IMG/VR virus record: IMGVR_UViG_3300013020_000009
Span: 1 to 31,081 of that record
Direction: 5' to 3' (one strand)
Length of the DNA stretch: 31,081 bases
Source: a virus
Taxonomy: Duplodnaviria > Caudoviricetes
Positions 1-19,515 of this stretch are shown in pieces. Position 1 is the stretch's first letter, and each line of letters opens with the position of its first letter. The translations under genes were made by a program, and so were the position numbers. The notes under the pieces are model-generated. The model had not been told where the DNA came from, made no database searches, and was given only the letters and a program-made list of their open reading frames with translations.

Positions 1-2
1 AT

Positions 3-716
3 GAAGTTACTGTTTCTGTTGAAACACGTAAAATGAGAAGTCAATGGACTCCTGAACTTGCTCAAGATGTTAGTGCTTTCCATAACATTGATGCTGAAGC
101 TGAGTTAACTGCTCTCCTTTCAGAGCAAATGGCTGCTGAAATCGACCGTGAGATTCTTCGTGATCTTCGTAGAGGTGCTGCTTGGACATTGCGTTGGGAT
201 TATAATGGATTGCGTAAGCAAACTAATACTTACTATGGTACTCAAAAAGATTGGAATCAAACATTGATTACTAAAATTAATCAAATCTCAGCACAAATCC
301 ATAAAGCTGTCCTTCGTGGTGGTGCATCTTGGATTGTTGTTTCTCCTGAGATTAGTGCAGTATTTGATGACCTTGAATACTTCCACGTAAGTAATGCTGC
401 TCCTGAACAGGATAAGTATAACATGGGTATTGAAAAGATTGGTACTCTTTCTGGACGTTACCAAGTATTCCGTGATCCTTATTCTCCTGCTGGAACAATG
501 TTGATTGGTCACAGAGGTAGAACAATACTTGAAAGTGGGTACGTGTACGCCCCGTACATACCTCTCCAGTTAACTCCTGTGATGTATAATCCATTCGATT
601 TTAAACCTATTAGGGGTATTATGACAAGATACGCTAAGAAGATGATTCTTAATCGTTATTATGGTCGTATCTTGTGTGATGGATTGCAAACATTTGGTAT
701 TGGTGACTTGAAATAG
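3..716 (+). CDS. gp23: Major capsid protein, T4 gp23 family (C-terminal part; 5' end lies outside the window)
   Basis: Frame is open from position 3 (EVTVSVETRKMRSQWTPELAQD...DAEAELTALLSEQMAAEIDREIL). Also has YAPYIPL and FKPIRGIMTRYA, all gp23 hallmarks. The ATG at 33 is internal. Confidence 0.95.
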   Translation, partial: EVTVSVETRKMRSQWTPELAQDVSAFHNIDAEAELTALLSEQMAAEIDREILRDLRRGAAWTLRWDYNGLRKQTNTYYGTQKDWNQTLITKINQISAQIHKAVLRGGASWIVVSPEISAVFDDLEYFHVSNAAPEQDKYNMGIEKIGTLSGRYQVFRDPYSPAGTMLIGHRGRTILESGYVYAPYIPLQLTPVMYNPFDFKPIRGIMTRYAKKMILNRYYGRILCDGLQTFGIGDLK

Positions 717-733
717 TCTTAGTTCTAATATAT

Positions 734-766
734 AAAAAGGGTGAGAATTAATTCTCACCCTTTTTT
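734..766. terminator. Bidirectional intrinsic terminator (perfect 32-bp palindrome)
   Basis: AAAAAGGGTGAGAATT|AATTCTCACCCTTTTT(T) between the convergent capsid and endonuclease genes, with A/T tails on both sides. Confidence 0.85.
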
Positions 767-2403
767 ATGATTTTTTCATACTTAAATTTACCACAATCCC
801 ATATTCGATCATATCCAATTTCCTGCATCATGTCCCATTCCGTTTTATTAATGTCAAAATAATTTGGATATTTTAATCTTAATTTATTTTTACCAAATCC
901 AAATTTATGTAATCGACCGCTTCTATGTGATTTTCTATAATAATATTTATAATCTGGTTTTAAAATATTAACACATTTAAATCCTAATTTAATATATAAA
1001 TTATCGTTTTGATTTGGAGTCCATCTTCTATCTGCAAAACTAATAATTCTATTAGGATTATATTGATTTATGAAAAAATTTAATAATTTAGAAGCCATTC
1101 CATTAATTACATAACCATTCTTCACAGCATACCTTGTTAATTCATATATATCATTAGTATGACCCTTAGATTTAGACATATTCCGTTTATTATCAAAACA
1201 CATAATAGAAACTAATTGGTTGTTATAATATGCACCAATACAAATTTTTGATTTAACGTTACCTTGTATGTGATTTTCATTTAAAAATTCTTTTTTTATA
1301 TCATTATCTATTTCATTAGAAATTATACATTTTCGAGCATGTATTTTTTTATTACATTTTTTCAATAAATATAATAATTTATTTTTAATAATTTCTTTTT
1401 TTTCTTCCCATTCATCTTCATGTAAATGGTATAAATTAATATTTTTCTTTGCTGCTATCAAAGTTTTATTTAAATGATAATTAAATGTTTTTTTACCATA
1501 AATTTCTGTATGATATAAATTCCCATTATATTCAATACCAATATTATATTCAGGTAAAAATAAATCAATTTCTAATCCATCTAAATATTTTCTTTTTGAT
1601 TGTTCTACTTTTATATTATTTTCTTCTAAGAATAATTTAATTTCATTTTCGGATTTAGAAGTTTTGCTTTTTTTTATAAATTTATTTGTATTTTTACTAA
1701 TAATACTTAATTTATCTTTAGTTCCCTTAGAAACTATATCATCATCACCATATTTTAATTTATATTCTGTAACATTCGTATTATGTTTTTTTAAATGAGT
1801 ATTATTAATAATTTTCATTTTTTTACCACAAATTTTACATTGAACTAAACCCATTTTAGAAATATCTTCATAATTTTTAAAATATTTTTCATCTTTTTTA
1901 TTATCTTTTAAATATTCTTCTATTGTTTTATTATGAATTTCTTTCAAATGTTTTTCATAAGCACCTGATTTATTATTTATATCTGTGGTAGTCCAATCAC
2001 AATAATAACATTTTTTAATTTCTTTTATTTTTTTATAAACGAATTCAAAATATTCATCATACCAATATTTTCCTGTTTTATATTCTAAGGATTTTCTTTT
2101 ATAGTTTGAGGGTATTTTAATATTATAATATTTTTTTAAATGATTTGTTATTGATCCTGATTTATTTTTATAATCATCAATAAAAATATTGGTTTTTAAA
2201 CATTTAGCAACAATATAAAAACCATCCCTTTCTGGATAATTCTCTTTAATTTTTTTATCAAATTCGTATGATTTTATAGTTTTTTGGATAAAAGTAAAAG
2301 AATAAGGATATTCTTCTTCTAATTTTCTCATTGAAACTCCAGAAATATATTTATTATATATTGCATTTTTTTCTTCTATATTGATATCTATTTTTTCTAA
2401 CAT
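748..2403 (-). CDS. Hef-like free-standing homing endonuclease: HTH + zinc fingers + Vsr/DUF559-type PD-(D/E)xK nuclease + C-terminal GNAT/Mom-like domain
   Basis: Fingers CYYC..HLKEIH and CKIC..HLKKH; nuclease motif SKSE..LEIDLFLPEYNIGIEYNGNLYH..HEDEW; C-terminal HARKC..NHIQG..YELTRY..ASKLL..ISFADRRW..LYIKLGF..RIWDCG. Confidence 0.75.
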   Translation of the reverse strand: MLEKIDINIEEKNAIYNKYISGVSMRKLEEEYPYSFTFIQKTIKSYEFDKKIKENYPERDGFYIVAKCLKTNIFIDDYKNKSGSITNHLKKYYNIKIPSNYKRKSLEYKTGKYWYDEYFEFVYKKIKEIKKCYYCDWTTTDINNKSGAYEKHLKEIHNKTIEEYLKDNKKDEKYFKNYEDISKMGLVQCKICGKKMKIINNTHLKKHNTNVTEYKLKYGDDDIVSKGTKDKLSIISKNTNKFIKKSKTSKSENEIKLFLEENNIKVEQSKRKYLDGLEIDLFLPEYNIGIEYNGNLYHTEIYGKKTFNYHLNKTLIAAKKNINLYHLHEDEWEEKKEIIKNKLLYLLKKCNKKIHARKCIISNEIDNDIKKEFLNENHIQGNVKSKICIGAYYNNQLVSIMCFDNKRNMSKSKGHTNDIYELTRYAVKNGYVINGMASKLLNFFINQYNPNRIISFADRRWTPNQNDNLYIKLGFKCVNILKPDYKYYYRKSHRSGRLHKFGFGKNKLRLKYPNYFDINKTEWDMMQEIGYDRIWDCGKFKYEKIIKKGEN

Positions 2404-2425
2404 TAATTACATTTTAAAATTTTTA

Positions 2426-2456
2426 CAAAAATAAATAATTTATTCAATTAAACAAA
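2426..2456 (-). promoter_or_regulatory. Bacteroidetes housekeeping-sigma promoter for the endonuclease gene
   Basis: Minus strand TTTG (2453-2456), 19-nt spacer, TATTTTTG (2426-2433), matching the -33/-7 consensus TTTG...TAnnTTTG. Confidence 0.7.
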
Positions 2457-2485
2457 AAAATCCTGTCAATATATATCAACAGGAT
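2454..2485 (-). terminator. Intrinsic terminator after the 139-aa membrane protein gene
   Basis: Minus strand AUCCUGU-UGAUAUAUAUUG-ACAGGAU stem (extendable by G.U pairs) followed by a U-run. Confidence 0.7.
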
Positions 2486-2506
2486 CTAAATTTTAAGAAT
2501 TAAATT

Positions 2507-2926
2507 TTAATATATAAAAAATCCAATAAAAAATAAAACAAAATACCAAATAGCTAATAAAGGAATTTTATATTTTCTTGGTTTAGCATCTATTTTAGAC
2601 ATCCAATAAATCCACTTATCATACCATTTATCGGTCGTACCAACATAGTAGTAGGGTAATCCTCTATGTTTATTATAAACAACGTTAAAACCGCCCAAAT
2701 ACATCAAAATACATGAGAATATAGATATTAATGTTATTGAATCATAATATTGCCATGTAAGAACAACACTAAGAAACCAAAACACTCTTAATAATAATTC
2801 ATATGTGTGATTTCTTTTTTTTGTATTATCAATTTCAGCATCACCTTTTGCATCAAAATAAATTGTCCCTAAAAAGAACAATTTTAATATCAACATAATT
2901 ATTAAATCGAAATTTCCTTGTATCAT
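2507..2926 (-). CDS. Hypothetical integral membrane protein (3-4 TM segments)
   Basis: Hydrophobic runs LIIMLILKLFFLGTIYF, LLLRVFWFLSVVLTW, ITLISIFSCILMYLGGF, IPLLAIWYFVLFFIGFFIY. Confidence 0.7.
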   Translation of the reverse strand: MIQGNFDLIIMLILKLFFLGTIYFDAKGDAEIDNTKKRNHTYELLLRVFWFLSVVLTWQYYDSITLISIFSCILMYLGGFNVVYNKHRGLPYYYVGTTDKWYDKWIYWMSKIDAKPRKYKIPLLAIWYFVLFFIGFFIY

Positions 2927-2931
2927 ATTAT

Positions 2932-3423
2932 TTATTTTAAATTTTTATCAGCCCAATCTTTAAATTCATATGGATTTAAAAACGGATCTATATTATATTT
3001 TCCTGTGGAATTTAAAAATCTTATAGCATGTTCATAACAATATGTTTTACGACTAGTTTTACTACCATACCATTTACCAAAAATAATTTTAACTAAATGC
3101 CACCAAAAGTTTTCAAATTCATATGGGGTTTCTTCAGCATTTTTCAAATAATTTAAACCCTTTTCATATTCTTCATCTGACAACTCTAAATTATAATCCA
3201 AGTATTTAAAATATTTTCCATTAAATTTTCTTAAGTAATCAATCCATAATCTAGTTTTGACACCCTCAGATATAGCACCAGATGTTTCATCACCAAATCT
3301 AATTTCTACATGATTGTAACATTTTCTGGTTTTTAATCCTCTTAATACAGCCCATAACCACATACCAATATGAATTGCTATGGCAGATATGTTTTTTGTT
3401 CTAATAATTGTAATTGACTTCAT
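2932..3423 (-). CDS. Permuted papain-like NlpC/P60 enzyme (YiiX/YaeF-like amidase/acyltransferase)
   Basis: His-before-Cys order: YNHVEI ... PYEF ... TYCYEH ... LNPYEF, as in permuted NlpC/P60 (SHV ... YCSE ... P). Confidence 0.65.
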   Translation of the reverse strand: MKSITIIRTKNISAIAIHIGMWLWAVLRGLKTRKCYNHVEIRFGDETSGAISEGVKTRLWIDYLRKFNGKYFKYLDYNLELSDEEYEKGLNYLKNAEETPYEFENFWWHLVKIIFGKWYGSKTSRKTYCYEHAIRFLNSTGKYNIDPFLNPYEFKDWADKNLK

Positions 3424-3435
3424 AACTATTTTTTA

Positions 3436-3445
3436 TATAAATAGA
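3436..3445 (-). promoter_or_regulatory. Putative late promoter (TCTATTTATA)
   Basis: Variant of the recurring ACTATTTATA motif, 12 nt upstream of the ATG at 3423. Confidence 0.55.
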
Positions 3446-3458
3446 TTTATTAAATAAA

Positions 3459-4943
3459 TTATTTTTCATCAGTCCAATTATTATCATAAATTAATTCTTT
3501 TTTTGCTCTAGTTATAGCTACATATGCTAAATTTTTTTCTTGTTGTACTTCCCATGCCTTTTGAACTTTTTTCATTGGTAATAAATCAGGTCTAACAATA
3601 AATACTCTATCTGACTCTAGACCTTTACTTTTATGTACAGTACTAAGAATAATACCCTCAACTTTATCAGTAAAAATATGTTGAATTTTTAATTTTAAAT
3701 CATTAATGTCTTTAGATATTTTACCAATAAATAATAAGGTTAAAACTTTATCTTCTAATGCAGTGTAAGTTGAATCATCTTCAATATTAATAATACCTTT
3801 ACTTAATAAATTACTTTTATAAATATTTAATTTTTCATCCCAAATAGATTTAAGTTGGTCTACTGTTTTTGCATCACCAATCATATCTATCAACGAATCA
3901 CCTATTTCAGCACCTTTAATTGTAACTTTCTTTTCTTTTATTAGAAATTGAAAAAACAATTTAACTAATGGCATTGTTGTTCTACATAAAATAAAATCAC
4001 CACTCTGTGCTTCTTTTAATACATCACCTTCTCTTACAACACCATCAATAGCAGTATCTAATGCTTTAATATCTGGTACATATTGTTGTGCATGTTTTAC
4101 AATATTTTTTGCACATCTGAATGTTGTTGATAAACTTAGTTTTTTTGTGTTTGGTAATTCTCTATACCAATCGAATGTTTTATCATTAATTCCAGTAAAC
4201 GAATAAATAGATTGATTTTTATCACCAATTAAAATAAGTCTACCAATTCTTTTACCTGTTTTGCGATCTTTTTTAACCATTTTATCAATCATCATTTGTT
4301 GAGCACGATTCAAATCTTGAATTTCGTCAACATAAACATAATCATAAGGAATTAAAAAAAGTTTATTATCGATTGCAGGTAAAAACACCATATCATTATA
4401 ATCTATTGTTTTAATATCATTCATTGATTCTTCTAAGACCATAAATACACGCTTAATGTCTTTATCAGATGAATATTTAATATTATAACGATCACAAAGA
4501 AAAGGAACAAATCTCTTTTTCGTTGTTAATGTAACCTTACATAAACCGACTAATCTTTTAATACTTTTAAGATAATCATTTATTTCATCTTCAGAAGAAA
4601 ATTCATTATGTAAATACCATTTACCTTTCTTTTTATTTATTATTTTATCTATTTTAAATTCATCAAAATCAACTTCTTTATATTTTCTAATAATAGAACC
4701 ATAACCAATTCCGTGCAATGTTTGTGTTTTAATTTCTTTTGGTAATTTTTCTTTCAATTCATCTTTAATATGTGTATTAAAAGCCAAAAATAATTTAGAT
4801 TTACCATCTGGAATATATTTCAATGATTCTATTGCTGTTGTTGTTTTTGCACATCCAGCAAATGCTTCAATAAGAATATTACCAAATCCATTTTTAATTT
4901 CATTAAAAAATAATTGTTGTTCTCTAGTCGGTTTAAATTCCAT
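3459..4943 (-). CDS. UvrD/Rep-like superfamily 1 DNA helicase
   Basis: Motifs AFAGCAKTTT (I), LAFN (Ia), VDEIQD (II), GDKNQSIYSF (III), TFRC (IV), STVHKSKGLE (V), LAYVAITRAK (VI). Confidence 0.92.
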   Translation of the reverse strand: MEFKPTREQQLFFNEIKNGFGNILIEAFAGCAKTTTAIESLKYIPDGKSKLFLAFNTHIKDELKEKLPKEIKTQTLHGIGYGSIIRKYKEVDFDEFKIDKIINKKKGKWYLHNEFSSEDEINDYLKSIKRLVGLCKVTLTTKKRFVPFLCDRYNIKYSSDKDIKRVFMVLEESMNDIKTIDYNDMVFLPAIDNKLFLIPYDYVYVDEIQDLNRAQQMMIDKMVKKDRKTGKRIGRLILIGDKNQSIYSFTGINDKTFDWYRELPNTKKLSLSTTFRCAKNIVKHAQQYVPDIKALDTAIDGVVREGDVLKEAQSGDFILCRTTMPLVKLFFQFLIKEKKVTIKGAEIGDSLIDMIGDAKTVDQLKSIWDEKLNIYKSNLLSKGIINIEDDSTYTALEDKVLTLLFIGKISKDINDLKLKIQHIFTDKVEGIILSTVHKSKGLESDRVFIVRPDLLPMKKVQKAWEVQQEKNLAYVAITRAKKELIYDNNWTDEK

Positions 4944-4956
4944 GTTTTTTTATTTG

Positions 4957-4964
4957 CAAATATA
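4957..4964 (-). promoter_or_regulatory. Bacteroidetes-type -7 element for the helicase gene
   Basis: TATATTTG on the minus strand, 13 nt upstream of the ATG; -33 element weak. Confidence 0.6.
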
Positions 4965-5017
4965 ACACCTTTTATGAAGATATAAAAGAAATACCCAATT
5001 AAATTATAAAAATAATA

Positions 5018-5027
5018 ACTATTTATA
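5018..5027 (+). promoter_or_regulatory. Putative late promoter ACTATTTATA (neck operon)
   Basis: Same motif recurs before every plus-strand transcription unit whose start lies in the window. Confidence 0.7.
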
Positions 5028-5043
5028 TATAAAACATTCAATT

Positions 5044-6168
5044 ATGAGTAATTTTATTGATACAAAAGATAAAAACAAATTATATCTTCATGTTAAACAT
5101 GAATTGGGTTATCCATTTAGACCTTTTGAAGTTACGGACGAAATGTTGGATTCTTATTTAGAAATGAGTTTAGAAGATTACTCATCTATTGTTAATAATT
5201 GGTTGATTGAACAACAATGGGTAAATCTCCAAAATATGGATATTGATAAAGGTGATTTCTTTAATGCTTTTGTGACTAAATCAAATGATTTTATGGAATC
5301 ATTTACTTATGCATATTCAAAACAAGTTGGTTTAGGAACAAATGCTCCTGCATCCAGAGGATGGGAATTAAAAAGAGACTATATAACTATTAGTGGTGAT
5401 ACTCAACATTATATTATACCTAAAAATAGAGAAGTAAATGAAGTTTTATGGGCTACACCACCGTCAATAGATCAAGGAATGATGGCTCCTTTTGCTGTTA
5501 GTAATTGGAGTGCTGGTCAATTTGGATGGGGTTATATGGGTAGACCTGCTCAATATGTTCAACCAACATATTCATTATTAATGGCTGCACAAGATAGACG
5601 TATGAAACAAAGAATTTTACAATCAGAATTAACATATAAAATAACTGGTTTAGAATCTGGAGAAAAATTATTACATCTATATCCTGTTCCGGGTAGTAGA
5701 TATGAAATTAAAAGTAAATTCGGAAAACATTTTAGTGGTACTAAGGTATGGTATTGGTATTATGATACAGATAAAAATAATTTAGAGGATTGTTTAAAAG
5801 AAAACCCTGATGTTGTTAGATTACCATCTGATGTTCCAATAGATAATTTATATTGGAAAAAATTAAACACTGTTGCTAGAAGACATGTTCGTGAATTATT
5901 AGTTGCAAAAGTTAAGATAGTTATTGGTGGTGTTAGAGGGTTTTTTAGTGGTGATGTCTCATCAACAGATGCAAAACAATTAACTATGGATTATAGACAT
6001 TTGTTAGATGAAGGAGAAAAATTAAGAGAGAGTATTTTTGAAGAGATTCGTAATAGTTTAGAGAAAATGAGTTTAGTTAATCTCAGTAAAGATCGGGCTG
6101 ATATAGCTGAAAATGTAAATAGACAAATGGGATATCAACCAATGCCAAATCCATTTATAACTATGTAA
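5044..6168 (+). CDS. gp13: Neck protein, T4 gp13-like
   Basis: N-terminal VKHELGYPFRPFEVTDEMLDSYLEMSLEDY and C-terminal LTMDYRHLLDEGEKLRE resemble gp13 (LG.P...VELT..Q..D; ..G..L..EA); gp14-like gene follows. Confidence 0.8.
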   Translation: MSNFIDTKDKNKLYLHVKHELGYPFRPFEVTDEMLDSYLEMSLEDYSSIVNNWLIEQQWVNLQNMDIDKGDFFNAFVTKSNDFMESFTYAYSKQVGLGTNAPASRGWELKRDYITISGDTQHYIIPKNREVNEVLWATPPSIDQGMMAPFAVSNWSAGQFGWGYMGRPAQYVQPTYSLLMAAQDRRMKQRILQSELTYKITGLESGEKLLHLYPVPGSRYEIKSKFGKHFSGTKVWYWYYDTDKNNLEDCLKENPDVVRLPSDVPIDNLYWKKLNTVARRHVRELLVAKVKIVIGGVRGFFSGDVSSTDAKQLTMDYRHLLDEGEKLRESIFEEIRNSLEKMSLVNLSKDRADIAENVNRQMGYQPMPNPFITM

Positions 6169-6183
6169 TTATATAATTAATTT

Positions 6184-6720
6184 ATGAGTAGAAAAAAGAA
6201 AAATATTGATTTTGAAAGTAATAGATATGGTTTATTTATGAGTGATGAATCATATAAATTAGAAATGATGTATGGTAGACATTATTTAAATACAGATATT
6301 AAACACGATATACTATTATATAAAATAAATGTTATAAAATCAAAATCTAATGATTTATATGGTCAATCAAAACCAAAAGATAAATCATATTTAACACCAG
6401 TTCAATTAACTGGTTTCATTAGAATTGATGATTCTCAACAATCTACTTATGGTGATGAATCAGGGGTTGTTAGAGATGATTCTGGTAACTTAATATTTAA
6501 TGTCTATTTAGATGAATTAAAAGAAAAGAATATTGATTTTGATAGAGGTGATATTATTGAATATAATATGGGTGGGGATTTTGCTAGATATTATGAAGTA
6601 TTCAATGCTAATAATGTTGTTGATACTACTTCTAATAGTATTGGTGGATTTAGACCATATTATAAGAAAGTTGAAGCCTTACCAGTTAAGGAAGATCTCA
6701 CGCATTTATTAAAAGTTTGA
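6184..6720 (+). CDS. gp14: Neck/head-closure protein, T4 gp14-like
   Basis: Follows gp13; NDLYGQ ... RGDIIEY ... YYEV pattern typical of gp14-like proteins. Confidence 0.65.
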   Translation: MSRKKKNIDFESNRYGLFMSDESYKLEMMYGRHYLNTDIKHDILLYKINVIKSKSNDLYGQSKPKDKSYLTPVQLTGFIRIDDSQQSTYGDESGVVRDDSGNLIFNVYLDELKEKNIDFDRGDIIEYNMGGDFARYYEVFNANNVVDTTSNSIGGFRPYYKKVEALPVKEDLTHLLKV

Positions 6721-7230
6721 TTTTTTGGTATATAATTCAAAATCATAAATTAAATCATTGTGTCTACCAGATGCAATGATTTTTTTATTATGAGTTGTTA
6801 TTTCTATATTAGGAAAATAAGTATCTCCTGTAAAAATATTTTTTAATTGTGTCATATATATCTTATCGTATAATTCGTTTTTTATAAAATAATCATAGAT
6901 CATACTTCCACCAATAATAAATATTTCTTTATTATTTTTAAATGAATTAATAAATTTAAATAATGCATCAAATGAATCAACAAAATATAAATTATTGTAT
7001 TCTTTACTTATATCATATAATTCATATTTTCTACTTAGAACAATATTAATCCTATTCGATAATGGTTTACCTATTGATTCAAATGTTTTTCTACCCATAA
7101 CAACAATATTATTCTTTGTTATGTTTTTAAAATATTTTAAATCTTCTGGTATATACCATAATAAAGAATTATTATTACCTATAACATTATTTTCAGATTT
7201 AGCTACGATTATATTGTATTTTCTATTCAT
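6709..7230 (-). CDS. folA: Dihydrofolate reductase
   Basis: IVAKSENNVIG..LLWYIPEDLKYFK..VVMGRKTFESIGKPLSNRINIVLSR..IFIIGGSMIY..GDTYFP. Confidence 0.97.
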   Translation of the reverse strand: MNRKYNIIVAKSENNVIGNNNSLLWYIPEDLKYFKNITKNNIVVMGRKTFESIGKPLSNRINIVLSRKYELYDISKEYNNLYFVDSFDALFKFINSFKNNKEIFIIGGSMIYDYFIKNELYDKIYMTQLKNIFTGDTYFPNIEITTHNKKIIASGRHNDLIYDFELYTKKSNF

Positions 7231-7466
7231 AATTCAACATCAAAATATTTTTTCTTTAAATCAATCAATTTCTTTTTTATTAATTCATGTTTTTTTTCAT
7301 CGTATAAATTTAAAGAGTGTCCATAATCAATATATATAGTTATAATAAAAGATATTAATTCTATTTCAGATTTAGATAATAATTTAGTTTTTTTTAAAAT
7401 AAATAATATTATAAGTACTAATACAAGTATTATAATTGTTAATATTAACATTATTATATAATCCAT
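7227..7466 (-). CDS. Small hypothetical protein with N-terminal membrane anchor
   Basis: YIIMLILTIIILVLVLIILFIL followed by KKTK; 4-nt overlap with the DHFR start. Confidence 0.65.
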   Translation of the reverse strand: MDYIIMLILTIIILVLVLIILFILKKTKLLSKSEIELISFIITIYIDYGHSLNLYDEKKHELIKKKLIDLKKKYFDVEL

Positions 7467-7486
7467 TTATTCTTCTATTTAAACAA

Positions 7487-7517
7487 CAAAAATATTAAAT
7501 TAAAACATAATAAACAA
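7487..7517 (-). promoter_or_regulatory. Bacteroidetes-type promoter for the membrane protein-DHFR pair
   Basis: Minus strand TTG (7515-7517), 20-nt spacer, TATTTTTG (7487-7494). Confidence 0.65.
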
Positions 7518-7526
7518 CTATTTATA
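7517..7526 (+). promoter_or_regulatory. Putative late promoter ACTATTTATA
   Basis: 15 nt upstream of the ATG at 7542. Confidence 0.7.
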
Positions 7527-7541
7527 AAAAAATAATCAACA

Positions 7542-7844
7542 ATGAATTTAAAAGAAGTAATTGAAGAGGAATTTGAAAAAACCCAAACAGATTATCCAGA
7601 TTTGATAGGTAAAACGTTAAGGTTAACAACCACTATAGAAACAAAATTTCGTGTAAAAAAGATTTTCTACCATGAAAAAAATGATCCAAACAATATAATT
7701 TTATATGGTAATCTTATTAGAGGTAATAATGAACATAGTGGAGAATCACTAAGAGTACCATTAGATAAATTTAAAAGGTTTTATAAAGAAAAGTATACTA
7801 CTTGGAAAAGGAATGATTTTGAATATCAGGAATTGCAGTATTAA
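7542..7844 (+). CDS. Hypothetical late protein (possible internal head protein)
   Basis: Has its own late-type motif, fills the gap between minus-strand genes, and starts MNLKEVIEEE. Confidence 0.65.
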   Translation: MNLKEVIEEEFEKTQTDYPDLIGKTLRLTTTIETKFRVKKIFYHEKNDPNNIILYGNLIRGNNEHSGESLRVPLDKFKRFYKEKYTTWKRNDFEYQELQY

Positions 7845-8674
7845 ACAGCAATTTCCAATTCACTATCCAATTTAGTTATCCCATCAATATTTTCAATTAT
7901 AAAATCATCTATGGTAAAATCATAAAAATTTTTATTTTCTTTTAATTTAATTGATGGTTGTTTATCTAATGATTGTTTGGTTAATATTTCAAATAAAGCA
8001 TTCATATGTCGATCATAAACATGTAAATTCTGAGTTAAATGACAAAACTTACCAACTTTATAATTTAAATGAGAAGCAATCATCATTTGAAGTGCTACAT
8101 ATTGAATTTTATTGATATAACCAGCCATAATATAATCATTAGACCTTTGAATTAAAGTCATATCTAAATAAAATTCATCATTAATTTTTCTAACACTCCA
8201 TAATGTTTCATAAGCACAAGGATCTAGACCCTTTGTTTCTTCTAAATCATTATATTGATACATATTCATAATATGTCTTCTACCAAAAGGATTTTCTTTT
8301 AATGATTTCAATAACTTATTGATTAAATCATATCTTTTTATAGTTGCTCCATACCTCTGACCAATACTATTTGTATTATTAACTTGCCACTCATCCCACC
8401 ATTTTATGCCAAGATCGTGAGCAACATTTAAATCATTAGATTGCTTTTGATATATCCATAAAATTTCTTTAATTCCAGTTTTTATAGCTGTATTTCTAAG
8501 AGTTGTTAAAGGAAATTCACCCTTAGATATGTCATATTCTTCAAAAACCTGTGTAATAAATTTTGTATGTGCAGGTGTACCATCTTTATATTTAGGTCTA
8601 GGGTTTTCATCCCAAACACCATCATTAATTATTTTTGTTAATTTTTCCCTATAATATTTATCTGCTTTAATCAT
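7841..8674 (-). CDS. thyA: Thymidylate synthase (ThyA)
   Basis: RRHI..LDPCAY (catalytic Cys)..QRSND..YINKIQY (dUMP-specifying Asn)..NLHVYDRH. Confidence 0.96.
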   Translation of the reverse strand: MIKADKYYREKLTKIINDGVWDENPRPKYKDGTPAHTKFITQVFEEYDISKGEFPLTTLRNTAIKTGIKEILWIYQKQSNDLNVAHDLGIKWWDEWQVNNTNSIGQRYGATIKRYDLINKLLKSLKENPFGRRHIMNMYQYNDLEETKGLDPCAYETLWSVRKINDEFYLDMTLIQRSNDYIMAGYINKIQYVALQMMIASHLNYKVGKFCHLTQNLHVYDRHMNALFEILTKQSLDKQPSIKLKENKNFYDFTIDDFIIENIDGITKLDSELEIAV

Positions 8675-8688
8675 AAATTTTTATTTTA

Positions 8689-8795
8689 AATAATTGATTA
8701 TTGGATGAGTCCGTTCGCTACTATGCAGGGCTTGGCTCGTATTGCAGGTAACCACTCCTGACCAAGTTCCGCAACTCTTTTTATAACCAATTATT
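8689..8795 (-). ncRNA. Candidate structured RNA in the thyA 5' leader (family not recognised)
   Basis: GC-rich island with five nested helices containing four G.U pairs that form only on the minus (thyA-sense) strand; ends 14 nt before the thyA ATG. Confidence 0.65.
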
Positions 8796-8800
8796 GTTTT

Positions 8801-9022
8801 TTAATGATTGCAATATGTTTTAATAATAGAATCTATTTCATTTATTAATTTATCTGGCATATTTGAGGTTATTAATGTGATAGTTTCACCAACTTTATAG
8901 TTTTCAACAAACATAGGGATTGTTTCAGATTGTTTTCTACCAATAACATTGTATTGTTTAATACTTATATCATCCAAATTAAATGTTATTTCTTTTTCTA
9001 GTATTTCTAAATTTCCCTTCAT
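8801..9022 (-). CDS. Hypothetical protein
   Basis: 73-aa ORF packed co-directionally between dut and thyA. Confidence 0.6.
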   Translation of the reverse strand: MKGNLEILEKEITFNLDDISIKQYNVIGRKQSETIPMFVENYKVGETITLITSNMPDKLINEIDSIIKTYCNH

Positions 9023-9029
9023 AATAACG

Positions 9030-9470
9030 TTATTTTACACCAGTATGACCAAATCCACCTTCACCTCTTTGAGTTGTAGTACTAAACAACCCAACTTCAT
9101 GAAACATTGCTTTTTCATGTTCAGCAATTACCATTTGACAAACCCTATCACCATCTTTAATTATATAATCTTCATTGGATAAATTAATCATAATAGCTTT
9201 AATTTCACCTCTATAGTCACTATCCACAGTCCCCGGAGAGTTTAAAACAGTAATTCCATTATTTGCAGCTAATCCTGAACGAGGTCTTATTTGTGCTTCA
9301 AAACCTATTGGTAATTCAATATAAATACCTGTAGGCACTATTGCTCTTTCAAGAGGTTTAAGTACAATATCTTCTTCAATATTTGCACACAAATCAACAC
9401 CTGCAGATTCTTCTGTTTTATATTCAGGTAATCTGTTTTTTGATTCATTTATAATGTTTACTATTACCAT
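9030..9470 (-). CDS. dut: Trimeric dUTPase
   Basis: All five motifs: [39 protein letters not shown]. Confidence 0.97.
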
Positions 9471-9474
9471 ATTT

Positions 9475-9831
9475 TTAAATTTTTTCTAAATCTTCAATAT
9501 TTATTTTTAATTCTTTTTTATAATATTTTATTTTAACCAATAAATGAAAACTATCGATTATTTTAATTATTTTACCTTTGAATGTTTTAAAATCATTATA
9601 ACCTTTTGATTGGTATAAATTTTCTTTTAAATATTCTGATGAATAAGCACAAACAAATATTTCTACATCATCACCAATATTATATTCTATTTTACCATAT
9701 CCTTCACATTTAGAACAAACGTCTCTTTTACAAAATTTACCACACAAAAGACATTTACCATTATCTATATATTCACAACAACAACTAGAAAATGAACCCT
9801 CACCGTAACATTCATTGCAAGTAATAATCAT
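9475..9831 (-). CDS. Cys-rich protein with DnaJ-type zinc-finger repeats
   Basis: CNECYGEG ... CSKCEGYG (CxxCxGxG twice) enclosing CCC..CLLC..C. Confidence 0.65.
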
Positions 9832-10157
9832 TTTTCATTCTTTTTTATATAATTATCGATTAAATTAGTTATATCTTCTAAGGATTCATTAAAGTTAGTT
9901 AAATCATATAAATCTTTTTGGGTAAAATTATAGGTGTCTATAATTTCTTTATCTGATTTATCATCAGAATATTCATCATTGATTTTATTAATTGTTTTTA
10001 ACAATTCTTTAGCTAAACCACCCCTATCTTCATCAATTATTGAATAACGACCATTGTACTCTTTATAGATTGAATCGTCAGCATAATAGTTTAAAACAAC
10101 CATAAATCTTTCAATAAGGCCGTCATTATTCGTTAATATTTGTTTTATTTTCTCCAT
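9828..10157 (-). CDS. Hypothetical protein
   Basis: 109-aa ORF overlapping both neighbours in a tightly packed operon. Confidence 0.65.
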   Translation of the reverse strand: MEKIKQILTNNDGLIERFMVVLNYYADDSIYKEYNGRYSIIDEDRGGLAKELLKTINKINDEYSDDKSDKEIIDTYNFTQKDLYDLTNFNESLEDITNLIDNYIKKNEK

Positions 10158-10476
10158 TTTTTTTATAATTTTCTATTATACTTTCAACTTCTTTTATTTC
10201 ACTTTCAAAAAGCTTATATTCAAATCTATATTGATGAATAGGATTAGTTTTTATATTCTGATTGAAAAACTTCCCTTGTGATTCAGCATTTTCAAAATTC
10301 TCATATAATTCTTTATCTACATTAATATATGAATAACCATGTCCACGTTTAAAGAAAATATAAAATTTTTCATTATCCTCAAAATATATTGTTTTTGTAA
10401 TATTTGACGAATCAAATATACACTCTACATATTTTTTTCCTTTGTCATCCGTAACTACTGTTTTTTCTAAAATCAT
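10126..10476 (-). CDS. KTSC-domain protein
   Basis: DSSNI..Y....FYIFFKRGHGYSYINV...YENFENAESQGKFFNQNIK matches the KTSC pattern. Confidence 0.85.
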   Translation of the reverse strand: MILEKTVVTDDKGKKYVECIFDSSNITKTIYFEDNEKFYIFFKRGHGYSYINVDKELYENFENAESQGKFFNQNIKTNPIHQYRFEYKLFESEIKEVESIIENYKKNGENKTNINE

Positions 10477-10481
10477 ATTTT

Positions 10482-10667
10482 TTATTTTTTAGACAATTCA
10501 ACTTGATTTAATAATGAGTTAGCTAAACGAATAGCTTCAGGCATACTAAGATCGATAAATGCTTCATCATCATAATTTTCTATTTGAAGCTGTATTACAC
10601 GGCCACCAATTACTGTTATTTTTTGATCATCATAATCAATAATTTTTTCTATTAGATTATTTTCCAT
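10482..10667 (-). CDS. Hypothetical protein (first gene of the KTSC-dut-thyA operon)
   Basis: 61-aa ORF downstream of a host-type promoter. Confidence 0.6.
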   Translation of the reverse strand: MENNLIEKIIDYDDQKITVIGGRVIQLQIENYDDEAFIDLSMPEAIRLANSLLNQVELSKK

Positions 10668-10713
10668 ATTTATTTTTTATGTGTTCAATTTTATTATTAA
10701 TTTATAGTTAATG

Positions 10714-10744
10714 CAAAAATAAGTAATTTATTTATAGTTTACAA
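10714..10744 (-). promoter_or_regulatory. Bacteroidetes-type promoter for the KTSC/dut/thyA operon
   Basis: Minus strand TTG (10742-10744), 20-nt spacer, TATTTTTG (10714-10721). Confidence 0.7.
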
Positions 10745-10765
10745 CTATTTATGAAACTATTTATA
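10744..10765 (+). promoter_or_regulatory. Tandem putative late promoters (ACTATTTAT twice)
   Basis: Copies at 10744-10752 and 10756-10765, upstream of the ATG at 10782. Confidence 0.7.
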
Positions 10766-10781
10766 AAAAAAGATTTAAATT

Positions 10782-11543
10782 ATGATGCCAGATAAAAAAT
10801 ATAAATCTATTGATTATAGTTATGAAGTATTAAGAAATACTGATAAATATTTGGAATATGGGTTTGATAAATTACAAAATTTATTATATCGAACTGATAA
10901 AAATACTATACATTTACCAAGGTCTATTGATTTTTTTGATTTAGATTTAGCAATAAAAAATTTATTTGAGAGTGGTCAGCTTAGTTTAAATATTGACGGG
11001 AATAAAGTACCTACATTTTATATGGAAAATGAACGATGGGGAGAATTTTCTAAAACATGGAAAATGACTGATAAAGATAAAAACGTTCCAACACCTTATA
11101 TTACTATTAGAAGGGTTGAAAAAAGTCCCGGTACTAGAATGGAAAAAAGTAATGTTGTTCAAAATAGACTTTTCACATATAAAGAGATACCAATAATGGA
11201 TGATGGGCAATTAATAAAATTATTAATGAAAATGCCACAACCTACTAATGTGGATTTGATCTATGAAGTAAATTTATTTACAAAATATCGTGTTGATGTA
11301 AACGAAATGGATAAATTAATATTGAAAAAATACGCATCAAGACAATTATATATAAATATAAATGGATCGTACATGGCAACATTATTAGAAGATATTGATG
11401 AAGCAAATACAATCCAAAATATAGATGATGATAAATATATTGTTGGTAAATACAAGATAAAATTACTTGGTTTTATTCAAGATGAAAAAGATTTTAAAAT
11501 AACTAAATCAACAAGATTACCCAATATATCTTATGATATTTAA
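10782..11543 (+). CDS. Tail terminator / sheath stabiliser, T4 gp15-like
   Basis: ERW...VPTPYITIRR...PQPTNVDLIYEVNLFTKYRVDVNEM resembles gp15-family (LP.I...; P.P.....Y.L.I.T....D..QI). Confidence 0.65.
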   Translation: MMPDKKYKSIDYSYEVLRNTDKYLEYGFDKLQNLLYRTDKNTIHLPRSIDFFDLDLAIKNLFESGQLSLNIDGNKVPTFYMENERWGEFSKTWKMTDKDKNVPTPYITIRRVEKSPGTRMEKSNVVQNRLFTYKEIPIMDDGQLIKLLMKMPQPTNVDLIYEVNLFTKYRVDVNEMDKLILKKYASRQLYININGSYMATLLEDIDEANTIQNIDDDKYIVGKYKIKLLGFIQDEKDFKITKSTRLPNISYDI

Positions 11544-12238
11544 TCAAATTCAATATTATCTTTATTAACAATAAAACTATCTCCAATTGGGTAAGTTGGT
11601 AATTTATTTTGTTTAATGTTTAATGTATTTTTATATGTGTTATTGTATGTATTAGCATCAATATTATAAAAATTAAATTTGGTAAACTCAAACGTTTTAT
11701 CTTCTTTATTAATGTGTATATCGAATAATATATCTTCTTGTGAACTTATTATTTGTGAATGTGAAAATTGATATATTTCACCATTTTTAGAATTAAAAAA
11801 AGTAAATTTACCATAATAAATATCATTAACTATATTATTCGGTATTTCTATGTCAGAAATATTATCATATACGAAATCATTGATTGGAATGTAAGGAATA
11901 TAATAATTAAATATTTTATTCCTTACATTGGGGTTGATTTTATCAAAAACCTCTAATAAAAAAAATGATTTTTTAGCATAAGGATACTGATTATTTTCAA
12001 AACCTATATCATTTATACTTGTACTACCACTAAAATAAAATGAAATATCATTATCATTTAAATTTTTATATATTGAAAAATCACCATCAATAATCTCATT
12101 AATACTTTCAGTTTTAACCTTTTCAATATACGAATTAAAAATAAATTCGTCTTTAATAAATGAATTTTTATTATCGATTGGAATTTTTATAGTTTTATCT
12201 TTAAAATCCCTAATAAAATTATATTTAATTTTTAACAT
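11540..12238 (-). CDS. Hypothetical protein, probably virion structural
   Basis: Last gene of a three-gene unit behind a late-type motif; rich in aromatic, Asn and Asp residues with a beta-strand-like pattern. Confidence 0.6.
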   Translation of the reverse strand: MLKIKYNFIRDFKDKTIKIPIDNKNSFIKDEFIFNSYIEKVKTESINEIIDGDFSIYKNLNDNDISFYFSGSTSINDIGFENNQYPYAKKSFFLLEVFDKINPNVRNKIFNYYIPYIPINDFVYDNISDIEIPNNIVNDIYYGKFTFFNSKNGEIYQFSHSQIISSQEDILFDIHINKEDKTFEFTKFNFYNIDANTYNNTYKNTLNIKQNKLPTYPIGDSFIVNKDNIEFD

Positions 12239-13389
12239 AAATCACCATAATTAGAAGTATCAATATTATTATCTTCTGTTATATATTCTTTCATAACAGG
12301 TTTGAATTTATTATATGTATTGGTATCAGAAATATCAGGTATTAATTTTAAAATATTATTATTATATAAATAATGTTTTCCATTTATAAATGGAAAATTA
12401 GTACCAATACCATATAAATTATCCACAAAACCTTTATCTATTAAATTCCTCCATATGTAATTACCTTGATCATCTAATTTAATTGCTTGTTCTGGAAATT
12501 CAACATATGTTCTACCTGAAACATTTTCAACATTTATTTCATTTTCTAAATAATCTATTTTTATGGGTATGAATAAATCATATTTCCATGTTATACTTTC
12601 AGTTGTACCAGAGTTATCATAGAATGTTTCAATTTTAATTGTTTTATCATATAATTTTGTTTCAGAATAATTATTTAAATTCCAATAAACAACATCTCCA
12701 TCAATAATATCTCCAATATTAAATGACATCGTATCTCCGGTTAACATTATTTCATTATAAATTACTTCAATACTATAATCGTCTACAACATAATCACTAA
12801 TATAAACTTTCTCATCATTATCAATTGTACCTATATAATTTTTTTTATAAATTGGCATAATATATAGTTCGGTTATTGGTTTACCAAACCAGTCATATTT
12901 ATACTCTAAATTAATATCTTTATTTATTAAATAATAATATTTTATATCACCAAAAATATTTTTAGAATAACCTTGTTTATTAATAATAAAATCAGTGTTT
13001 TTTGCGATAACTTCAAATTTTCTTAAAAAAGTATTACCAGTAATATTATCATAATTTAATGTTTCGTCTAAATTATTTATTGGTTTAACTAAGTAAAAAT
13101 CAAAACTATTAAATATATTTTTATTATCATTATTAACCTTTTTAAAAAAATCTTCAAAATATTCATAATTTGTAGTAATACCATTTAATAATGAGAAAAA
13201 TTCAATACCCCCATAAATAAAGTATTTGTTTGAATTTTGTCTTTCTTTATCAAATTGATCTGAAACATTTACATATTCTGTAAGTTTACTTTCAATTATT
13301 TTCTTTTCAGTGTTTTTTAAAAATAATTGTTTAAAAATATCACTATTTACACCATTAATATGTTTATATTCGCCTAATTGTTCAATCAT
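12232..13389 (-). CDS. Hypothetical protein, probably virion structural
   Basis: 385-aa ORF abutting its neighbours; carries four [ST]GxT motifs. Confidence 0.65.
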   Translation of the reverse strand: MIEQLGEYKHINGVNSDIFKQLFLKNTEKKIIESKLTEYVNVSDQFDKERQNSNKYFIYGGIEFFSLLNGITTNYEYFEDFFKKVNNDNKNIFNSFDFYLVKPINNLDETLNYDNITGNTFLRKFEVIAKNTDFIINKQGYSKNIFGDIKYYYLINKDINLEYKYDWFGKPITELYIMPIYKKNYIGTIDNDEKVYISDYVVDDYSIEVIYNEIMLTGDTMSFNIGDIIDGDVVYWNLNNYSETKLYDKTIKIETFYDNSGTTESITWKYDLFIPIKIDYLENEINVENVSGRTYVEFPEQAIKLDDQGNYIWRNLIDKGFVDNLYGIGTNFPFINGKHYLYNNNILKLIPDISDTNTYNKFKPVMKEYITEDNNIDTSNYGDLC

Positions 13390-15762
13390 TTAAATAAAAT
13401 TTAAATTGTATAATGTTTTTATTGCATCATTTTCATAGAAACCTTTAAATATATATGGGCCTTCATCATACAATGGTACATATGCACCATTGTAATCATT
13501 ATAACTACCATTACTATTATTCGTATCATGATTATAATATATTGTATCTGAAGAATCTATGATATTATTATCCACCAATTTTTTTAAATGTATTGATCTT
13601 GAATCTATATTTGACAATATATTTAAATGTGATTCAGGTATTTCAATTATATCTGTTTTAAAAGTATCACCTCTTATTATATTTTTAGGGGTATAAATAT
13701 CACCTAAAACATGTTGTTGAATATCTGTTCTATGTTCCAAAAACCAACTATTCCTATTCTGAGTATAATCACCAAAAATCATTTTAGAAACCATTAAATC
13801 TCTTTCTTCTCCATAAGTAGTATAATCACGAGCATATGAAAATTGTGGTATTAATATAAACATATTAACCCATTGAGCACCGAAATATCTTTGTTCTAAA
13901 CCATAAAGGAATCCATTATCTGTTTTAATATTTTTATATGCTATTTTATTATAAGGAAACTCATAATTATATGTTTTATATTGAGTTTCGCCACTACTAA
14001 TACTATCAAAACCACCATCTGTTGTTGGAGCTGTTCCACCTGTATAATTAATTGTTTCACCACTATAATTAAACACATCAGATTTAAAAATATAATTATC
14101 AATTAAATCTAAACCTGCTGTACGAAATATAAAACCACCTATAAGACAAACTTCTCTTTCATATTGTTCACCACTATCTGGTTCATTATCAGGTAATATT
14201 AATTTGTTATCTGGATCTTCTAAAGTGTTCGTTAACCAATCATTTTTTATGTATGTTGTTGGAAAAAACCCACTAACACTATAATATTTACCTATTCCCA
14301 ATGAAAAATACTTTTTTTTCCATTTTTCACTTTCCATATATCTATCAAATTCGGAATCTTCTGGATTATCTTCATCACTAACATTTCTTAAAGAATATTC
14401 AGATTGTGGTATTTTTAATATCCCTCTAGTATTATAAGCTTTATCACCACCATAATAAGTATCCCCATTATGATTTTGTGTTATTGGTAATTCTGCTTCA
14501 TTATCATTATAATCAATCAAAACCATTCCTAAGAAATTAGTAAAAACACCCTTTTCACTGTCTTCATCTATAGGAACCAATTCTCCTTGTTCATTAGTAA
14601 TTCTTCTATCCCTATTACAATTAATAACTAAAACAAAAAATCCATTATTAACATAATAATAATATTCTGATTCATCTAATTCAACAATATCAGTTCTAGT
14701 ATTTATTAAACTATTATTTTTATAATCATTAATATCTGTAAAAGTAGTACCTGTTAAATCTTTATCAATATCACTCTTATTGATATAATTAGGATAAGTA
14801 AAAACTTTAATATTTAAATCATTTGAACCTCTTAAAGTTCTAATATCCATATTTATTTCATTATTAGATTCATTAGATAAAAAATAGAAAGATGAATTAT
14901 TTCTATCATCACCATCATAAGAAATATCTGGTGTACCAATAACACATGGTTCACCCATTGTACCAATTGTACCAAAAACAATTGTACTTGATCTTATTTG
15001 TGCTCTTATATTAAAATCTTGTCTAGTTATACCAATTTCAAAATTTTCTTTATCACCCCAAAAAGGTATTACATTAACACCGATTTCTTGTGTTTCAATA
15101 TTTGGTAAATCTTCTAATCTTTTTTGTTCAATAATACTAAACCCATCTTCACTAAATAGATTTTCAGAATAACCTAAATTTTGAATCATTTCAATTGGTG
15201 ACATAGAATATGGGCCAATATCTGTAATATCCACACTCATATGAACTGTTTGAATACCAGTAGGTACACCAAATAACATATAATCACCAGAATCATTAGT
15301 TATTGTAGTATATTTATAATATTTTTCATAAATTTCTAATTGTGTTTCATCTACGGATATTTCAACTTTATTTGGAAAACTACCGAATGGTTGTTTTGGT
15401 TTATAATTACCATTTTCATCTAAAATAGATGTTCGAGGTAATAAATTATATCTTTTATTAAATTTATTTATATCTCTGGGTGTTTCATATGGATATAAAG
15501 CTACAATATCTGGATTATTTTTATCTTCTTCTGATATAGGTATAAATAATGATATTCTTGCATTCGGAATACCAATATTATCATTACCATTAACTCTACC
15601 AACAACAACACCAAAATCAGAATTAAATGAATTGTATATATCTTTCTGTGTTATTTTTAAAGATAATACACTTAACTCTTCAGTATCTTGACTCAAATTA
15701 ATTTTAAAATGAGTATCACTATTATTTAAATTTAATTTTATTCTTTTTGAATTATTACTCAT
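13390..15762 (-). CDS. Large putative baseplate/tail-associated protein with N-terminal carboxypeptidase-regulatory (prealbumin-like) domain
   Basis: VVVGRVNGNDNIGIPNARISL ... TTITNDSGDYMLFGVPTGIQTVHMSVD; divergent from the sheath gene; late-type motif upstream. Confidence 0.6.
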   Translation of the reverse strand: MSNNSKRIKLNLNNSDTHFKINLSQDTEELSVLSLKITQKDIYNSFNSDFGVVVGRVNGNDNIGIPNARISLFIPISEEDKNNPDIVALYPYETPRDINKFNKRYNLLPRTSILDENGNYKPKQPFGSFPNKVEISVDETQLEIYEKYYKYTTITNDSGDYMLFGVPTGIQTVHMSVDITDIGPYSMSPIEMIQNLGYSENLFSEDGFSIIEQKRLEDLPNIETQEIGVNVIPFWGDKENFEIGITRQDFNIRAQIRSSTIVFGTIGTMGEPCVIGTPDISYDGDDRNNSSFYFLSNESNNEINMDIRTLRGSNDLNIKVFTYPNYINKSDIDKDLTGTTFTDINDYKNNSLINTRTDIVELDESEYYYYVNNGFFVLVINCNRDRRITNEQGELVPIDEDSEKGVFTNFLGMVLIDYNDNEAELPITQNHNGDTYYGGDKAYNTRGILKIPQSEYSLRNVSDEDNPEDSEFDRYMESEKWKKKYFSLGIGKYYSVSGFFPTTYIKNDWLTNTLEDPDNKLILPDNEPDSGEQYEREVCLIGGFIFRTAGLDLIDNYIFKSDVFNYSGETINYTGGTAPTTDGGFDSISSGETQYKTYNYEFPYNKIAYKNIKTDNGFLYGLEQRYFGAQWVNMFILIPQFSYARDYTTYGEERDLMVSKMIFGDYTQNRNSWFLEHRTDIQQHVLGDIYTPKNIIRGDTFKTDIIEIPESHLNILSNIDSRSIHLKKLVDNNIIDSSDTIYYNHDTNNSNGSYNDYNGAYVPLYDEGPYIFKGFYENDAIKTLYNLNFI

Positions 15763-15780
15763 AATAACTAAAGTATTTAT

Positions 15781-15790
15781 TATAAATAAT
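15781..15790 (-). promoter_or_regulatory. Putative late promoter variant (ATTATTTATA)
   Basis: 18 nt upstream of the ATG at 15762. Confidence 0.5.
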
Positions 15791-15837
15791 CAACATTATA
15801 AAAATATTTCGATTTTATGTCTTTTCTATAAAAAAAT

Positions 15838-15847
15838 ACTATTTATA
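15838..15847 (+). promoter_or_regulatory. Putative late promoter ACTATTTATA (sheath)
   Basis: 40 nt upstream of the sheath ATG. Confidence 0.7.
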
Positions 15848-15887
15848 TATAAGATAATAATATAAAAAATTATAAAATAATAATATT

Positions 15888-18644: not shown

Positions 18645-18658
18645 CAAATTATCGAATT

Positions 18659-18695
18659 AAAAAAAGTCGATTAAATATTTAATCGACTTTTTTTT
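18659..18695 (+). terminator. Intrinsic terminator (perfect 36-bp palindrome)
   Basis: AAAAAAAGTCGATTAAAT|ATTTAATCGACTTTTTTT(T) just after the sheath stop. Confidence 0.85.
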
Positions 18696-18714
18696 GTTAA
18701 AAATGTTAAATAAA

Positions 18715-18994: not shown

Positions 18995-19483
18995 ATGAGT
19001 GATTTACTATTAGGAGTACCTATGGATTATGAACCTAGAACAAAAAACAGGTTCTTTTTAGAGTTTCCAGATGATGTAGGTATTGAAATATGGAAAGTAC
19101 AAAAATTTGACAGACCTAAATTAGATATTGATAATGTTGAAATTCAATGGTTTCATGAAACTCAATACTTTTCTAATAAGTATAAATGGCAACCATTAAC
19201 AATAACATTATTAGATGTTATTGCACCATCAACGGGTCAACAAGTTATGGAATGGGTTAGACTACATGCTGAAAGTATTACAGGTAGAATGGGTTATGCT
19301 CAGGGATATAAAAAGAACTTAATATTAAAAAGTACAGACCCAACAGGAGTGTCTATCGAGAAATGGTCATTGGAACAATGTAATATTACCAATGTTGATT
19401 TTCAAGATAATGATATGGAATCAAATGAAGCACAAAAAATAACAATAACAATACAACCTCAAAGGTGTATATTAAATGCATAA
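18995..19483 (+). CDS. gp19: Tail tube protein (gp19 family)
   Basis: EPRTKNRF..RPKL..KWQPLTITLLD..VMEW..GYAQGYKK..DPTG..IEKWSL; located after the sheath gene. Confidence 0.92.
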   Translation: MSDLLLGVPMDYEPRTKNRFFLEFPDDVGIEIWKVQKFDRPKLDIDNVEIQWFHETQYFSNKYKWQPLTITLLDVIAPSTGQQVMEWVRLHAESITGRMGYAQGYKKNLILKSTDPTGVSIEKWSLEQCNITNVDFQDNDMESNEAQKITITIQPQRCILNA

Positions 19484-19514: not shown

Positions 19515-19515
19515 A

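Follow-up and report, generated by a model that had tools for sequence, protein, structure and literature searches.

A probably constrained and non-coding GC-rich element ahead of thyA in a T4-like jumbo phage, tentatively read as a small-RNA module

Introduction

What is the compact GC-rich island that sits directly ahead of the thymidylate synthase gene in the DNA of a large phage? The 31,081-nt stretch analyzed here (hereafter the window) is part of a T4-like jumbo phage genome, encoding a Gp23 capsid protein, a tail sheath protein, UvrD, dfr, thyA, dut and an intein-bearing PhoH, and a 299-kb contig carries the same proteins. An earlier note, written from the sequence alone, described the island as an unrecognized structured RNA filling the thyA leader, and proposed as its possible identities a folate- or nucleotide-sensing switch, a ThyA autoregulatory site, a processing signal or ribozyme, or an independent small RNA.

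Results and Discussion

A GC-rich element fills the space upstream of thyA

The element is flanked, reading along the minus strand, by a 73-aa orphan ORF and then by thyA, whose identity is borne out by Pfam (Table 1). As the earlier note had described, it takes up nearly the whole intergenic space (107 of 126 nt), stops 14 nt short of the thyA ATG, and forms a GC island in otherwise AT-rich DNA: positions 8703-8777 are the GC-richest 75 nt of the window, with a GC content of 0.547 compared to 0.243 overall. The second GC peak of the window, at 20657-20731, is coding. The reported sequence and coordinates are correct, and all five helices named in the note can form on the minus strand.

Table 1. 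Coordinates of the element, its parts and the neighboring genes in the window.
Feature	Position	Strand	Remarks
Candidate structured RNA (GC core and closing AU-rich stem)	8689..8795	minus (likely)	Kept in the lake relative X8
5' arm of the 13-bp closing stem	8783..8795	minus	Pair probabilities 0.54-1.0; not conserved in the second X8 contig (loose end at 8781)
3' arm of the 13-bp closing stem	8689..8701	minus	Ends 14 nt before the thyA ATG
GC-rich core, GC 0.547	8703..8777	minus	Nested fold no better than shuffles
Helix CUUGGU (8766-8761) / GCCAAG (8736-8731)	8731..8766	minus	Common to both candidate folds; encloses the CAGG/CCUG hairpin (8760-8745)
Alternative 7-bp helix 8775-8769 / 8747-8741	8741..8775	minus	Predicted; H-type pseudoknot; fits all three observed substitutions
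Two words (13 and 9 nt) common to the 3' peripheral hairpin loops of a phiKZ-group RNA-polymerase group I intron	8713..8748	minus	Possibly chance
21-nt perfect complement of the rpsM (S13) start region in one Ignavibacteria-type genome	8730..8750	minus	16-19 nt in eight others
Stop-free frame, 39 codons, in frame with thyA	8684..8800	minus	Lacks an ATG here; no protein relatives
thyA, thymidylate synthase, 277 aa	7841..8674	minus	Pfam PF00303, E 1e-60
Orphan ORF, 73 aa	8801..9022	minus	Absent in the lake relative X8 (joint 8794-9030)
dut, dUTPase	9030..9470	minus	DNA closest to Bacteroidia genes, of two classes tested

The outer stem is predicted to be modestly stable, and two inner folds may compete

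Folding of the whole element (8689-8795) on the minus strand gave a z-score of -2.7, with 4 of 500 shuffled sequences folding as well. The core by itself scored at the level of shuffles, with z-scores of -0.1 for 8702-8781 and +0.1 for 8707-8777. Stability beyond chance is modest, and all of it comes from the outer AU-rich stem.

The earlier note had assigned the RNA to the minus strand on the grounds that several helices contain G·U pairs, which would be A·C mismatches on the other strand. This argument does not fix the strand, because the plus strand folds almost as well (-25.5 versus -28.2 kcal/mol) and itself forms four G·U pairs, of which two are A·C on the minus strand. The minimum-free-energy (MFE) structure of the minus strand contains three G·U pairs; the fourth cannot form together with the first pair of the neighboring helix. 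We consider the minus strand the likely one only because the operon runs in that direction.

In our models the inner fold is not unique. The 7-bp helix at 8775-8769/8747-8741 competes with the UGCGG/CUGCA helix at 8773-8769/8728-8724 (-6.7 versus -4.4 as duplexes) and would cross the CUUGGU/GCCAAG helix as a pseudoknot, giving two competing inner folds; ViennaRNA cannot score the pseudoknot fold, and as a nested helix the 7-bp helix has no ensemble weight. The possible pseudoknot resembles the topology of c-di-GMP-II and folate/purine riboswitches. Downstream of the element, the thyA start region is predicted to be mostly open, with the start codon outside the closing stem. No terminator-like or sigma-70-like site was found at the element.

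The element belongs to no Rfam family

We took the gathering thresholds of the Rfam 15 covariance models (CMs) as the criterion for family membership. No match in the window reached this level and ARAGORN reported no tRNA, in agreement with the note's judgment that the element does not fit the tRNA, THF, ZTP, SAM-I, hammerhead or HDV consensus; the element belongs to no Rfam family. At E-values up to 10, only chance-level matches appeared (mir-27, Alpha_RBS, S16-Flavobacteria and sRNA162 fragments), all far below threshold. The THF, ZTP, folE and dfrA-dnaX models likewise scored nothing up to E 10, c-di-GMP-II (RF01786) found no match even at E 10 within the phage's own genome, and Intron_gpI detected no group I intron catalytic core in the window. 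Likenesses to SAM-I, SRP, twister, pistol, cobalamin and T-box RNAs were rejected, none being scored by Rfam. The element shares with the c-di-GMP-II, THF, ZTP, folE and dfrA-dnaX RNAs its size and its position 5' of a metabolic gene, but differs in matching none of their models and in having no conserved gene association.

In a catalogue of viral candidate RNAs, compared by gene names only, none of 880 rows (genes within 25 bp) names ThyA and one names ThyX (PMC10690425, supplement file 5). Titles and abstract openings in the literature contained no earlier report on this element.

Related copies suggest a constrained, modular element

Public assemblies yielded three homologous copies: one from seawater (X6) and two from lake contigs (X8), the latter single and of low depth. 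X5 and X7 do not cover the element. X6 is nearly the same strain; its element differs at one position, 8707, where a G-C pair becomes G·U on the minus strand. The first X8 contig spans thyA and the element; over 342 nt it shows 22 differences, of which 16 fall in about 231 nt of coding sequence and 6 in the 112 nt of the element; two of the six are readable (8727 and 8721). If 60-90% of the coding differences are at third positions, neutral divergence would give 14-21 differences in 112 nt, compared to the 6 observed (p 0.015-0.0001). Because of this deficit, seen in one informative relative, the element is likely under constraint, and coding does not account for it, given a third-position GC content unlike that of the genes.

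The three readable substitutions show no compensatory change of a pair. The 8707 change keeps its pair and 8721 lies in a loop, while 8727 breaks a predicted pair of the UGCGG/CUGCA helix, leaves the pseudoknot model intact, and is an unpaired base in the plus-strand fold.

The copies differ in their surroundings. In the first X8 contig the element is joined straight to the dut stop (joint 8794-9030) without the intervening 73-aa ORF. The second X8 contig matches positions 8741-8781, the 5' half of the element, with 4 differences, and places it behind unrelated DNA; this copy lacks the 5' arm of the outer stem, and the contig ends before the 3' side. Together, these two arrangements suggest that the element is modular. 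In all three genomes with a visible 3' side (the window, X6 and the first X8 contig), the element is still on thyA. In another X8 thyA contig, with 27 differences in 157 nt, the similarity leaves off at 8682.

The element is absent before related thyA genes

Using nhmmer, we searched the best 80 of 162 phage loci with a related thyA (61-75% identity) and found the element ahead of none of these genes; the preceding 200 nt are mostly other genes. Two complete relatives with capsid identities of 88-89%, read whole, contain no copy, and the dut-thyA slot of three other capsid-close relatives holds small ORFs or nothing. Capsid-close relatives carry at the syntenic place a longer thymidylate-synthase-like gene of 352-356 aa that is only 22-28% identical (L540 17051-18817, L616 and L617), and for this reason we conclude that thyA has been swapped within this phage group.

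Broader searches gave no true copy apart from that of the same phage. Matches to phages and plasmids in blastn were at chance level, and word-pattern scans of viral contigs gave no homologue among the matches listed, whose numbers were near those due to chance, with one scan covering 24 of 64 parts. A metagenome word scan gave 11 matches, one of them the same phage (L367), which was also the only find of nhmmer over 534 loci; a GTDB word scan over 61 of 64 parts gave 121 matches, about the number expected by chance. Single-sequence CMs, which are insensitive, gave one weak false match and no true copy in 49 thyA-locus records, nothing in a set of 5 records, nothing in a further 49 that were selected on capsid or size and in part overlap the sets before them, only the window itself among 100 sources, and nothing in 150 Bacteroidia-class genomes. 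Most of these records are fragments, and word and CM searches may miss diverged copies.

Several look-alikes were discarded: those in L260, L267 and L318 are antisense to an oxygenase-like ORF and that in L517 is antisense to an ORF, those in L436, L442 and L443 are by eye a repeated coding stretch, that in L399 is AT-rich, and 12-13-mers shared with the relative G055 are coding. Separately, G056 and G055 contain GC-rich, ORF-free islands that are not called as tRNA (L650 15194-15284, L648 11252-11354, L651 11630-11739 and L622 9836-9947), and the island in L650 has a T-arm-like hairpin.

These results bear on the reading of the element as a cis-acting leader of thyA. In a lineage-specific form of this reading, ThyA, a phage repressor or, less likely, a metabolite would stabilize the fold, and the closing stem beside the A-rich initiation region would lower translation. 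Persistence of the element on thyA in the window, X6 and X8 despite a differing upstream gene argues for such a leader, as do the closeness of the stem to the ATG and the two competing inner folds. Binding of thymidylate synthase to its own mRNA has moreover been described, and the autoregulatory site in human thymidylate synthase mRNA is alike in that structure adjoins the start codon (PMC4274661, PMC5929524); here, unlike at the human site, the stem excludes the start codon and the element is missing from related thyA genes. Against a leader stand its absence from all 80 related loci, the mostly open start region, the lack of a Shine-Dalgarno (SD) or terminator platform, the lack of any Rfam riboswitch match, and the lack of ThyA among the catalogued viral RNAs, compared by gene name (PMC10690425). 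We consider this reading possible but somewhat unlikely, with a minor share of it falling to a true riboswitch. If correct, it would describe a recent, lineage-specific control element rather than a new riboswitch class.

Neither a folate- or nucleotide-sensing switch nor a conserved thyA cis-regulator is supported: the element is restricted to the window's own lineage, and it has no Rfam match, no terminator, no SD sequence to hide and no other visible expression platform. A true riboswitch is unlikely. What stands of the note's main claim is a constrained non-coding element outside any Rfam family.

A small RNA of its own is the tentatively favored reading

As the element belongs to no catalogued family and is absent before related thyA genes, a small RNA of its own is likelier than a thymidylate switch. 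We tentatively favor a lineage-restricted small-RNA module in a variable slot, likely cut from the dut-thyA transcript and acting in trans. Among the options that the note had listed, an independent small RNA fits best; its existence as a discrete transcript, like everything beyond a constrained non-coding island, is what we infer. The homologues are too few to fix structure, strand or function, which limits the present value of the element.

In outline, a narrow lineage of roughly 300-kb T4-like phages would have placed an RNA module in the variable slot between dut and thyA, where it would be co-transcribed with the operon on the minus strand. Closed by the 13-bp AU stem, the element would be excised as a stable RNA, whose core would then base-pair with targets in trans. 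The search for targets gave a single candidate, the start region of host rpsM; a duplex there could be seeded by the unpaired CAAUACGA loop and would keep S13 and its operon from being translated.

As to the host, no Shine-Dalgarno core precedes any of the 33 genes in the window, and DNA from positions 1-16000 of the window has matches in 103 of 251 Bacteroidia-class and in 32 of 251 Ignavibacteria-type genomes, mostly via dut, with class names taken from the centre genomes. On these two grounds the host is likely a member of the Bacteroidia. No CRISPR-spacer-like match pointing to a host was found for the first 16 kb, with two candidates scored per genome. One unpublished genome (G694) enters only the tallies of window-DNA matches and the one-mismatch 16-mer counts below.

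Complementarity to the rpsM start region

We tested rpsM because of the weak Alpha_RBS match noted above. The plus strand of the element aligns to the rpsM coding part of this model (RF00140, the S4 operator of the E. coli alpha operon) with 13.9-14.2 bits; the score is far below the gathering threshold of 38, the alignment is on the strand opposite to the phage operon, and the S13 frame is not kept (stop after 9 codons). Of 301 Bacteroidota-phylum genomes, 9 contain an exact match to a 16-mer from the plus strand (1 for the reversed control), and all nine matches are rpsM starts, so that a minus-strand RNA would be a perfect complement over the S13 start codon. The rpsM match, at 21 nt, is the best BLAST match among 251 Ignavibacteria-type genomes, and shuffled elements reached 16 nt against 224 start regions in 1 of 20,000 cases. 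No exact 16-mer match was found in 201 Bacteroidia-class genomes. With one mismatch, 44 of these 201 genomes match (control, 6), and 28 of the 47 one-mismatch matches listed are synonymous variants of the same five codons, by sequence match only.

Other features of the match temper this picture. Its E-value is 5e-4 per genome and about 0.13 over 251 genomes, and unrelated matches score nearly as well. Similarity to the rpsM region ends at the edge of the block (p 0.6-0.7), and half of the complementary stretch is paired inside the predicted fold. The longest matches are in Ignavibacteria-type genomes. These use SD sequences, which the phage lacks, and the phage dut is nearer to Bacteroidia. 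The match may be due to chance; allowing for all conserved ribosomal-protein starts, we estimate p at about 0.002-0.02. Within the 31-kb window, complementarity to genes of the phage itself does not exceed 11 nt.

The most specific form of the small-RNA reading is a structured, guide-like antisense RNA, cut from the nucleotide-metabolism operon, that would cover the start codon of host rpsM with its central 21 nt, perfectly paired, and shut down the S13 operon during infection. We judge this form quite unlikely. If true, a lytic phage would here silence a ribosomal-protein operon of its host through RNA pairing, which would be rare; a reporter would make it easy to test. Titles and abstract openings in the literature named no phage RNA acting on rpsM. 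The closest comparison is the lambda RNA LPR1/PreS, a phage base-pairing small RNA that acts on host dnaN and enhances its translation (bioRxiv 10.1101/2024.10.31.621285). LPR1 and the candidate RNA here are both short, intergenic and of phage origin, with the translation start of an essential host gene as target or candidate target. In contrast to LPR1, which enhances translation, the pairing of our element is predicted from sequence as one perfect block of 18-21 nt over the start codon and is predicted to be repressive.

Likeness to intron hairpins and the possibility of a relic

The element might instead be a relic: a short, foreign, GC-richer fragment that the variable slot has taken up, for instance from the 3' periphery of a group I intron or as an inverted piece of the start of a host gene, and that now has hardly any function or none. 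As a comparison set we used the 3' hairpins of phage group I introns (phiKZ-group RNA polymerase, T4 td and Felix O1-type nrdD). Words of 13 and 9 nt occur in the element in the same order and at similar spacing as in two hairpin loops after P9 of the phiKZ-group intron; the stems differ, however, and the element has no catalytic core. This likeness is one among 86 mostly chance pattern matches; phage introns often contain the second word, and the phiKZ-group intron gets no score from CM R2. Since the stems differ and the match is one of so many, the likeness may reflect chance or a shared tertiary motif. In the intron itself (L091 minus strand, about 1485-1790; L394-L398), an insertion follows the 5' strand of P7, and a 6-nt loop within it is complementary to the last 3' hairpin loop; the 3' hairpins fall outside the Rfam Intron_gpI model.

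A relic would be consistent with a core that folds no better than chance, with the failure to find a family in any collection searched, and with the short likenesses to intron loops and to rpsM. It is harder to reconcile with the low divergence, which lies under the neutral estimate, with a clean closing stem of 13 bp and with a second copy in another context; nor is there an intron core, and the similarity to rpsM is confined to one block. We consider a relic unlikely.

A possible role in RNA processing or self-cleavage

Lying between cistrons, the element might also serve in RNA processing or stability, by cutting the polycistronic mRNA in front of thyA, perhaps as a self-cleaving ribozyme, or by protecting it there. 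The alternative fold has an HDV-like aspect, in that it opens with the 7-bp helix, begins with a G·U pair and is crossed by a second helix. HDV-like ribozymes form a nested double pseudoknot with P3/L3, P1.1 and a catalytic C at a junction, and their first helix is opened by a G·U pair. By inspection only a P1/P2-like pair of helices can be drawn in the element, the P3/L3, P1.1 and catalytic junction do not fit, and no Rfam ribozyme model matched; overall, we hold a processing or ribozyme role to be distinctly unlikely.

A possible translated leader

In a coding reading, a translated leader ORF of about 40 codons would couple dut to thyA translation or attenuate it, the window copy having lost its ATG. 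The element does lie in an open frame of 39 codons in frame with thyA, and both X8 contigs show an ATG in this frame just after the upstream stop (by eye, at loose ends, with 4 differences unseen). In the first X8 contig, the stop codon closing the frame would overlap the start of thyA. Against this, the third-position GC content (GC3) of the frame is 12/38 compared to 0.085 for genes (p 5e-5), and the three readable substitutions are all non-synonymous. No relatives of the peptide were found among 1.84 billion proteins, phage genomes or PHROGs. The element thus has, in this genome, no start codon, no genome-like codon use and no protein relatives, as a small protein gene would. The -1 frame is open for 19 codons, with both X8 changes silent (n=2) and a GC3 far above that of the genome. 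At the 5' edge of the core (8777-8782, minus strand), a run of As ending in AAG resembles a slippery site. The coding explanation is weak, and we find it improbable to much the same degree as a processing role; ribosomes may read through the element in some relatives.

Other features of the window

Three further observations concern mobile and intergenic elements in the window. A 551-aa ORF (748-2403, minus strand) has strong PHROG matches to homing/HNH endonucleases and no Pfam match, and lies directly after the capsid gene on the opposite strand. The PhoH-like gene (26373-28262, minus strand) contains its intein with a LAGLIDADG endonuclease. Finally, terminator-like AT-rich inverted repeats with T runs lie between genes at 18655-18700 and 19480-19519.
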